IMG/VR virus record: IMGVR_UViG_2531839468_000018
Location: 1-23,016 of that record
Length of the DNA stretch: 23,016 nt
DNA from: a virus
Lineage: Duplodnaviria; Heunggongvirae; Uroviricota; Caudoviricetes
Strand: one strand, 5' to 3'
Of the stretch, positions 9,845 to 10,404 are shown one piece after another (position 1 is the first letter of the stretch; every line of letters begins with the position of its first letter). The translations under genes and the position numbers were made by a program. The notes beneath the pieces are model-generated. The model was not told where the DNA came from, did no database searches, and saw only the letters and a program-made list of their open reading frames with translations.

Positions 9845-10007
9845 AAATCTCCAGAACGCAACAGGACGCATTCTAACGCTGTTTTCATTGCTTGGTATAG
9901 GGATGTATAGGTGATGTGTGTTTAATGCGTCTGTGCGCTTGTTTTGTGCCTTATTTTGCATTTTCATAATGCAGAAGAGAACACGGAAAACCTTAAAATT
10001 AATTATT

Positions 10008-10050
10008 GGGGTATTTAAGGCTATTTTCAGGTTATTTAAGGGTATTAAAC
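10008..10050. repeat. AT-rich ~10-bp periodic direct repeats (GGTATTTAAGG-like)
   Basis: GGGTATTTAAGG CTATTTTCAGG TTATTTAAGG GTATTAAAC. Confidence 0.5.
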
Positions 10051-10123
10051 TTGATTTAATTGATTAAAATATAAACAGATAGTTCTGTATCTTATTGATT
10101 TATAAGGTTATTTTTAAATAAAG

Positions 10124-10187
10124 GTAAATAAAAATAAATAGCCATAAATAGCCATAAATAGCTATAAATACATCTAAATACCTATAT
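10124..10187. repeat. Six tandem 10-bp units (ATAAATAGCC-like)
   Basis: ..GGTAAATAAA AATAAATAGCC ATAAATAGCC ATAAATAGCT ATAAATACAT CTAAATACCT; helical-repeat periodicity. Confidence 0.6.
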
Positions 10188-10404
10188 CCCTTCCCTTATG
10201 GCTAGATTGCGAGAGGTGCTTAACGCGATTTTCAGCGCCCCCCGATCTGGAAAATCCAGAATCCCCAAATATCAGCAAGGAATTTTCTTGCGTAATCAAC
10301 ATCGTTTTTACCTATTAAATCATTACACAGAAAGCCTTTCTGTAATGTCTCTCACTAAACTGTGAACCGCCCCGGGTTTCCTGGAGAGTGTTTTATCTGT
10401 GAAC

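Follow-up and report, generated by a model that had tools for sequence, protein, structure and literature searches.

The 23,016-nucleotide stretch of DNA analyzed here, positions 1 to 23,016 of IMG/VR virus record IMGVR_UViG_2531839468_000018 (hereafter the window), carries a satellite-like island in host DNA that is E. coli chromosome. The island is 13.4 kb in length (12.1 kb without its IS629 insertion) and is bounded by direct repeats at 9057-9084 and 22456-22483. Near its left end are two arrays of A/T-rich units with a period of about 10 bp, in opposite orientation; the right array ends at 10186, and 21 bp away, at 10207, begins a 68-bp module that matches the genome end of phi92-like phages. 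Our preferred, still tentative, reading is that the arrays may be a satellite-specific accessory arm, for binding or bending, of this helper-type DNA-end (packaging) site. The elements of the region are as follows (a slash marks the boundary).

9874-9887, plus strand: box-A copy A3, a degenerate direct copy (12/14), TAACGCTGTTTTCA, present in the type-A relatives
10009-10066, minus strand: left array, 5-6 degenerate TAAATA(C/G)C units at 10-11 bp spacing, weaker than the right array
10016-10029, same strand as box A: box-A-like copy A2 (12/14), TAAGGCTATTTTCA, inside the left array
10067-10112, no strand: AT-rich spacer sequence between the inverted arrays
10113-10186, plus strand: right array, 7 TAAATA units at exactly 10 bp, ATAAATAGCC-type
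10207-10274, plus strand: helper-type genome-end module, TTGCGAGAGGTGCT/TAACGCGATTTTCAG, like the inner boundary of the phi92 terminal repeat
10221-10235, plus strand: box A of the end module, followed by 46 nt and then box B
10267-10274, plus strand: box B of the end module, AAATATCA
10275-10291, minus strand: terminator-like hairpin GCAAGGAATTTTCTTGC, directly after box B

A distant blastn search with 9600-10365 against phage genomes matched 61 records, nearly all of which are phi92-like (Stephanstirmvirinae), and every match is confined to window positions 10197-10274. The end module is 96% identical over 46 bp to positions 318-363 of phi92, with 40 nt fully identical, and the match straddles phi92 positions 343/344, where the left direct terminal repeat is annotated to end on its inner side. 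A 29-nt core, TTGCGAGAGGTGCTTAACGCGATTTTCAG, is invariant across phi92, a Klebsiella phage, and the island. The independent record of the Klebsiella phage starts with AGCACCTTCTC... and ends with ...CTGAAAATCGCGTT; because it starts and ends there, the GCGTTA/AGCACC boundary is a physical genome end. The phage genome's right end, ...CTGAAAATCGCGTTA/AGCACCTCTC, is contained in the end module, and its equivalent in the window is 10220/10221, at a distance of 34 bp from the last array unit. In both phages, AGC(A/C)C opens the sequence that follows either repeat boundary. The end motif is single-copy in a 148-kb Justusliebigvirus genome and occurs once in the window, where none is expected. The exact 25-nt module is present in 14 IMG/VR contigs, all of them phi92-like phages or E. 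coli islands, and it has only one match in genome contigs (L006, JAEYLX010000052.1). This 4-kb contig is labelled "MAG: Bacillota bacterium" and contains a near-identical type-A array with the end module; it probably represents E. coli DNA binned in error. Outside the module, the k-mers shared between the gene-free region of the island and the phi92 junction show a modest excess only, and there is one 22-nt match at 13328-13349 (E = 3e-4, 5-kb database).

The distance from box A (TAACGCGAnnnTCAG) to the box B that follows it, AAATATC(A), is fixed at 45-46 nt in phi92, the window, the array-less variant L158, an Enterobacter relative (L039), and a metagenome relative (L160), and the sequence between the boxes varies among them. 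Boxes at fixed spacing with a variable interior are what would be expected of a bipartite protein site. Box-A-like 14-mers occur four times in the window versus 0.19 expected, three of them clustered on one strand, and the two extra degenerate copies, A2 and A3, are found in type-A islands only. On the opposite strand, the A2 core (GGCTATTT) reads as the right-array unit ATAAATAGCC, so that the arrays resemble a degenerate and amplified form of the end box.

A small recombinase gene is always the neighbor of the end module in relatives (12067-12607 in L021 and L022, 7102-7653 in L158, 4166-4726 in L039, and 264-845 in L160). Its product is a serine invertase of 179-183 aa in the E. coli variants and a short tyrosine recombinase of 186-193 aa in the Enterobacter and metagenome relatives; an invertase, gp053, is also encoded by phi92. 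In the invertase variants, another hairpin takes the place of GCAAGGAATTTTCTTGC, at the 3' end of the recombinase gene. The phage terminal repeat (phi92 1-343 in L003 and L005, and the Klebsiella phage, L159) has Fur-box-like runs, GATAATGATTATCATT and GAATGATAATGCAAATGATAAT, just inside box B, and the island is without them.

The sequence-only reading of this DNA had described two periodic A/T-rich arrays, and both are present, with seven exact TAAATA units on the right and five or six weaker units on the left. It had counted six units from 10124 on the right; the array stands, but its units number seven, with TAAATA starting at 10115, 10125, 10135, 10145, 10155, 10165, and 10175, i.e., at exact 10-bp spacing. 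The hexamer occurs 21 times in the whole window. Tandem Repeats Finder (TRF) resolves the right array with a period of 10 (3.7 copies, 96% match, score 67, 10134-10170) and with a period of 20 (score 68, 10125-10186), and a direct-repeat search places it in family D1, comprising five overlapping copies with a spacing of 10. The left-array units are GGTATTTAAGG (10010), GCTATTTTCAGG (10020), TTATTTAAGGG (10032), TATTAAAC (10043), and TGATTTAA (10052), and only two of the units have exact TATTTA. Two features had gone unnoticed, namely the end module 21 bp to the right and the inverted orientation of the arrays. Both arrays are built from one motif in opposite orientation (10009-10026 and 10136-10153 are 89% complementary; inverted-repeat search, I3), and together they hold about 12 copies of TAAATA(G/C)C, head-to-head about the 46-bp AT-rich spacer. 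The switch of motif orientation is marked by TTATTTTTAAATAA (10108-10121), which overlaps the beginning of the right array. The GC content across 10000-10199 is 22.5%.

The 10-bp Fourier power of AA/TT in 10005-10190 is matched by 5 of 1000 dinucleotide shuffles. The arrays had been called phased A-tracts; the exact 10-bp period holds on the right, but most units of the arrays carry A3 rather than A4-6, and the second A-run of the first two right-hand units is half a turn out of phase. In a wedge model with approximate parameters, 10101-10260 is predicted to be among the roughly 1% most curved 120-bp segments of the window, and the curvature of the left array is ordinary (15th-25th percentile). 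The strongest 10-bp AAA/TTT periodicity in the window is located at 16061-16190. This stretch neighbors a perfect 21-bp tandem duplication (GAGATGCTCTGTAAGCGTGTA x1.9) at 15944-15983, inside a 120-aa open reading frame (ORF) at 15755-16117.

The array and end-module region is present in 428 of 5426 complete E. coli genomes, and all 11 distinct copies of this type (type A) have the arrays together with the full module. Among these copies, conservation is 1.0 in the end module versus 0.72-0.90 in the flanks, which include the gene for a 52-aa protein; it is 0.96-0.995 in the left array plus spacer (9998-10117) and 0.955-0.986 in the spacer. The arrays and spacer are among the most conserved non-coding DNA here, behind the end module alone. 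The copy number of the right array ranges from 5 to 9 across relatives, always in whole 10-bp steps. Type-B variants (L021, L022, and L158; 53 genomes) are without the arrays and without the left half of the module, and type-A/type-B homology starts exactly at TAACGCG, i.e., at the phage end. The two types were also considered as two orientations of a segment flipped by the serine invertase; this was rejected, as neither inverted arrays nor an inverted left half-module occurs in L021 or L022.

The array-less island L022 is integrated at the same thrW site, and its proteins are 99% (integrase, Int), 97% (replication-initiator-like protein, Rep), 100% (ribbon-helix-helix protein, RHH), 95% (62-aa protein), 96% (52-aa protein), 96% (major capsid protein), 94% (tape-measure-like protein), and 99% (Dit-like protein) identical to those of the window. 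Unless type B is defective, the absence of arrays beside near-identical Int, Rep, and RHH speaks against the arrays being integrase arms, iterons for Rep, or operators that the island's own regulators would use. Because proteins that are 94-100% identical coexist with the lack of arrays, a protein that binds the arrays, if any, is probably not encoded by the island. The RHH protein had been proposed as a binder in the sequence-only reading and does not survive this comparison. An RHH ParR-type centromere was rejected on the same ground; in addition, no partition NTPase is found among the island ORFs. The broader class that had been proposed, a phased binding or bending array, is the most plausible one, given the conservation, the whole 10-bp copy steps, and the curvature predicted on the right; the candidates named for it fall away.

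The island as a whole has the following further features.

9057-9084, plus strand: left attachment (att) repeat, 3' part of tRNA-Thr (thrW); direct repeat D2, 28 nt, 89% identity, partner at 22456-22483
9686-9844, plus strand: gene for a 52-aa basic protein, coding by its substitution pattern
10363-11672, minus strand: IS629, 1310 bp, with ends TGAACCGCCCCGGG... and ...GGGGCGGTTCA; secondary to the arrays
12499-12680, plus strand: five 22-bp iterons (GGTAGGTCACTGTGAGCTAGGG) and then an AT-rich stretch, TRF score 144
14261-14950, plus strand: winged helix-turn-helix replication-initiator-like protein (PF13730 HTH_36 at 24.9 bits, just below the 25-bit cut-off; phrog_270, phrog_428)
17049-18077, plus strand: major capsid protein of the island itself (Phage_cap_E), sharing about 25% identity with those of large Pseudomonas/Erwinia myoviruses
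18381-20210, plus strand: tape-measure-like protein, 609 aa (phrog_16051), 34-37% identical to its counterpart in phi92-like phages
20246-20959, plus strand: Dit-like tail-tube-initiator/baseplate protein (PF21821), 61% identical to Justusliebigvirus proteins (tblastn)
21041-22318, minus strand: tyrosine integrase (PF00589, phrog_1)

The relatives L001 and L022 have a tRNA-Thr annotated at the equivalent place, and in relatives the insertion is at the tRNA-Thr beside proA. In the 52-aa gene, 7 of the 10 variable sites are at codon position 3, with nine synonymous changes versus one non-synonymous. The capsid protein of the island is a close copy of no phage protein in the collection searched; homologues in the same gene order are present in Klebsiella, Enterobacter, Citrobacter, Cronobacter, Serratia, and others, and the capsid proteins of the large Pseudomonas/Erwinia myoviruses have been grouped with Stephanstirmvirinae (PMC12846349). 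In tblastn, the tape-measure-like protein matches 134 phage records, mostly of phi92-group Escherichia and Klebsiella phages. The identities of the Dit-like and tape-measure-like proteins to the same phage group make the helper link independent of the DNA motif. An RHH-like protein of 55 aa is among the small ORFs.

No terminase or portal was recognized among the island ORFs with Pfam and PHROGs, nor were the hallmarks of phage-inducible chromosomal islands (PICIs; alpA with pri-rep), of capsid-forming PICIs (own terminase, portal, and head-tail connectors), or of P4-like elements (P4 alpha, sid, psu, and delta). The general features of a phage satellite are present, i.e., Int with att repeats, no terminase or portal, a helper end module, and homologues of the tape-measure-like and tail-tube-initiator proteins. 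The island resembles an undescribed satellite of phi92-like virulent phages, which would mobilize it; literature searches found no described satellite of these phages. Relatives of this satellite-like island are spread across Enterobacterales.

From these observations, we infer how protein binding, cutting, packaging, and any mobilization of the island might proceed. When a phi92-like helper infects, its terminase would recognize box A, the 46 nt, and box B and would cut the island at the equivalent of 10220/10221. Across the cut, the arrays (phased, readily wrapped, and probably curved) would be bound by a protein of the helper or the host, or would just bend the DNA. Either effect could favor assembly of the cutting-packaging complex on island DNA, as the cosB R-sites and the IHF bend do for lambda cosN. 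An arm of a packaging site should be located directly beside the terminase cleavage site, and the array is 21 bp from the module, the cleavage position being placed by homology. The same arm is absent from the helper, which fits a satellite-specific arm and not simple copying. Adjacency, phage-end identity, the independent helper proteins, co-inheritance, and conservation all point toward a packaging arm, as do the 10-bp-step copy variation, the box-A copies, the predicted curvature of the right array, and the independence of the arrays from the island's own Int, Rep, and RHH. Because readings as integrase, Rep, own-regulator, and promoter sites are all argued against, the arrays appear to be a cis element linked to the end module of phi92 type.

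Several packaging systems are comparable. Lambda cos consists of the nicking site cosN and of cosB with R3-I1-R2-R1, and in E. coli PICIs (e.g., EcCICFT073), as Fillol-Salom et al. reportedly described in 2019, the cos sites keep the helper cosN and have a different cosB that is read via Rpp. As in these sites, a helper-identical cleavage module here abuts a satellite-specific block of repeats that are partly inverted and predicted to be bend-prone. On the other hand, the phi92-like helper is no cos phage but a virulent myovirus of 148 kb with direct terminal repeats, the island yielded no homologue of Rpp or TerS, and the units are AT-rich 10-mers rather than 16-bp R sites. Short-repeat arrays also occur in the SRL/SRR heptamer series of the T7 terminal repetition, the hexamer arrays of P1 pac, and the bent boxes of SPP1 pacL/pacR. 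As in the island, those arrays flank the terminase cleavage site or terminal-repeat boundary on the side of the unique sequence; unlike there, the phi92-like helpers have no array at the boundary, and the unit sequence is unrelated. Filaments of P2 Cox, 186 Apl, and lambda Xis, and RHH ParR-type centromeres (pSK41 and R1 parC), are formed by small proteins that polymerize along DNA and bend it, on direct repeats one helical turn apart like the present arrays. In contrast to those systems, the island has no partition NTPase, its arrays are far from att, and its RHH and other small proteins are near-identical in the array-less sister island.

Satellites that copy the packaging signals of their helpers are already known (P4/P2 cos, the cos-PICIs, and PLE/ICP1), as are short repeat arrays beside terminase sites. 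The island resembles P4, the cos-PICIs, and PLE in being a roughly 12-kb Int island with no recognizable terminase or portal that carries helper DNA-end sequence and some helper virion homologues. It differs in its gene set (its own capsid, tape-measure-like, and tail-tube-initiator proteins) and in its Stephanstirmvirinae helper, for which no matching described family was found. As far as the literature was searched, the helper group, the island gene set, and the array-bearing hybrid end site are undescribed. In a bolder form of the proposal, which we consider distinctly unlikely, the island would represent the first recognized family of phi92-like satellites, with the arrays as the half of a hybrid packaging site that the satellite itself invented, possibly in the form of its own terminal repeat of about 205 bp (from the end box at 10221 to the degenerate copy at 10016), by which it would out-compete the helper for terminase.

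Several observations weigh against a packaging arm. Neither phi92, Justusliebigvirus alia, nor the Klebsiella phage has a TAAATA array at its own boundary, which argues that the helper terminase needs none. The type-B islands appear to manage without arrays in 53 genomes, and the arrays are in this respect dispensable for the family. The distant family members (Enterobacter L039 and metagenome L160) keep the module beside the small tyrosine recombinase, again without arrays. A search of the island for a second motif like the phi92 "site L" cut, which would delimit a phage-like terminal repeat, gave only a ribosome-binding-site look-alike at 18143. Copy changes in 10-bp steps are equally expected from replication slippage free of selection, and the curvature estimate depends on approximate wedge parameters.

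Among the alternatives, a regulatory operator or silencing array is unlikely but retains some force. Here a host nucleoid protein (of the H-NS, Fis, or IHF type) or a helper regulator would nucleate on the arrays and control transcription at the island end, e.g., keep it silent until helper infection. The low GC content, the predicted curvature on the right, and the high conservation would suit such an array; a weak promoter-like site on the minus strand (10030-10002) is located in the left array, the terminator-like hairpin at 10275-10291 is on the same strand, and the independence from the island's own regulators leaves host or helper factors. However, in the sigma-70 scan the arrays gave no promoter on the plus strand, and promoter-like sites in the array region are fewer than in shuffles (1 versus 2.7). 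There is also no obvious gene to be regulated. A 127-aa ORF starts at ATG 10198 (10198-10365 plus 11673-11894), but its 15 variable sites are distributed 6/4/5 by codon position, 11 changes are non-synonymous, one copy has a stop codon, and PGAP gives no call, so it was rejected as a gene. TAAATA-type k-mers show no enrichment upstream of the ORFs of Justusliebigvirus alia. Nor would a regulatory role account for why the arrays are so strictly co-inherited with the half of the end module that is of phi92 type. Mimicry of a helper late promoter (T4-type TATAAATA) was likewise rejected; only 12 copies of TATAAATA occur in the 148 kb of Justusliebigvirus alia. For rV5, TggTAaAAtA has been reported, with no gp55/33/45 homologues (PMC3606486).

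It is also possible, though we think it a poor prospect, that the arrays are a functionless, slippage-prone AT-rich minisatellite hitch-hiking beside a selected element. The copy number is polymorphic, sister lineages dispense with the arrays, and TAAATA-N4 arrays are common in AT-rich viral contigs; a search of IMG/VR with the generic pattern of four TAAATA-N4 units returned unrelated AT-rich contigs and was uninformative. Slippage alone, however, would not be expected to produce the inverted two-array layout with an internal box-A-like copy, and the non-repetitive left array and spacer are better conserved than the neighboring coding gene.

A secondary replication origin or DNA-unwinding element is improbable. 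In such an element, resembling SaPI/PICI origins, inverted arrays about an easily melted spacer would serve a helper or host initiator; the two arrays do enclose a very AT-rich spacer, and the surrounding 2.7-kb gene-free region is rich in repeat families. Against this, a canonical candidate, the five 22-bp iterons with an AT-rich stretch at 12499-12680, which is probably the island's replication origin, lies 2.3 kb off (about 1 kb discounting IS629). The same 22-bp iteron type is retained in L022 with the 97% identical Rep and no arrays, a comparison that also removes the Rep- or DnaA-like initiator sites suggested by the sequence-only reading. There is no DnaA box within the arrays, and all more distant family members are without them.

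The gene-free region itself (9845-13833 minus IS629) comprises about 2.7 kb without a credible gene; it is unannotated by PGAP in uninterrupted relatives and contains several distinct repeat families. A comparable 1.8-kb gene-free stretch is located about the concatemer junction of phi92. No phage match was found for the rest of the region (11676-13900) or for the alternative module of type B. The AT-rich stretch after the iterons holds AATAAAACTATT twice, and 24-bp TACCCCTATCAA... repeats are also present at the iteron region of L022 and L039. Upstream of the iterons, at 11976-12420, there are 6-7 plus-strand copies of ATTACACAGG or a close variant, and copies in inverted orientation are present at 12961-13075. 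The stretches 13118-13200 and 13575-13605 hold a 9/13-bp repeat array (ATCTTATTT / TTATCTAACTTAG), a DnaA box close to consensus (TTATCCACT, at about 13159), and a tandem GTGTTTTAGAGCGTTTTAGAC; the last is directly followed by a strong promoter-like TTGACA...TAATAAT (about 13693) that precedes the operon from 13834. These elements may serve the RHH and 62-aa proteins as operators.

It is highly doubtful that the arrays lie inside a short terminal repeat of the island's own, of about 205 bp, which in phage orientation would run from AGCACCTCTC (10220 downwards) to the degenerate box A CTGAAAATAGCCTTA (10030-10016). Such an interval would mirror the phage repeat in starting with AGCMC and ending with box A, the geometry and strand of A1 (box A of the module) and A2 match the phage arrangement, and these 205 bp are the best-conserved non-coding block. 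Yet A2 is degenerate (12/14) and further degraded in L017, the AATACC that follows it is a poor match to the post-cut motif, and the length of the repeat would shift with array copy number. Finally, integrase or excisionase arm-type sites (the former also named in the sequence-only reading) would draw on the resemblance of the helical-turn direct repeats to Xis, Cox, and Apl arrays, but are hardly credible, as the arrays are 930-1100 bp from the att repeat at 9057-9084 and are absent from L022 beside a 99% identical Int at the same thrW, which effectively refutes them.

The arrays had also been placed upstream of the IS629 insertion. The position is correct, and the relation is only positional; because the ORF at 10198 is not coding, IS629 interrupts what is probably non-coding DNA, and the relatives L001 and L002 are uninterrupted. 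E. coli KSC64 (NZ_CP018840.1) is one strain with an uninterrupted type-A island. At Rfam gathering thresholds, the whole window has only an IS009 RNA (3735-3933) and the IS629 ALIL pseudoknot (11221-11337), with none in the arrays or the gene-free region. The IS009 match belongs to another mobile element, which, instead of proA and tRNA-Thr, occupies positions 1-9000 to the left of the island; the same element is found upstream in strain TB06052 (L002), beside phage tail/baseplate genes, and this points to tandem elements at thrW.

Satellites of temperate phages, such as P4 and the PICIs, are well studied, and those of large virulent coliphages are not. Phages of the phi92-like and rV5-like groups are widely used as therapeutic candidates, and an island that shares their genome end and encodes variants of their tail proteins could either hamper these phages or be disseminated by them. 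The arrays and the module form a compact test object of about 290 bp for the choice of cut site by terminase in phages with direct terminal repeats, and for its subversion by a parasite. Even if the arrays are functionless, they are still useful as a pointer to the neighboring end mimic.

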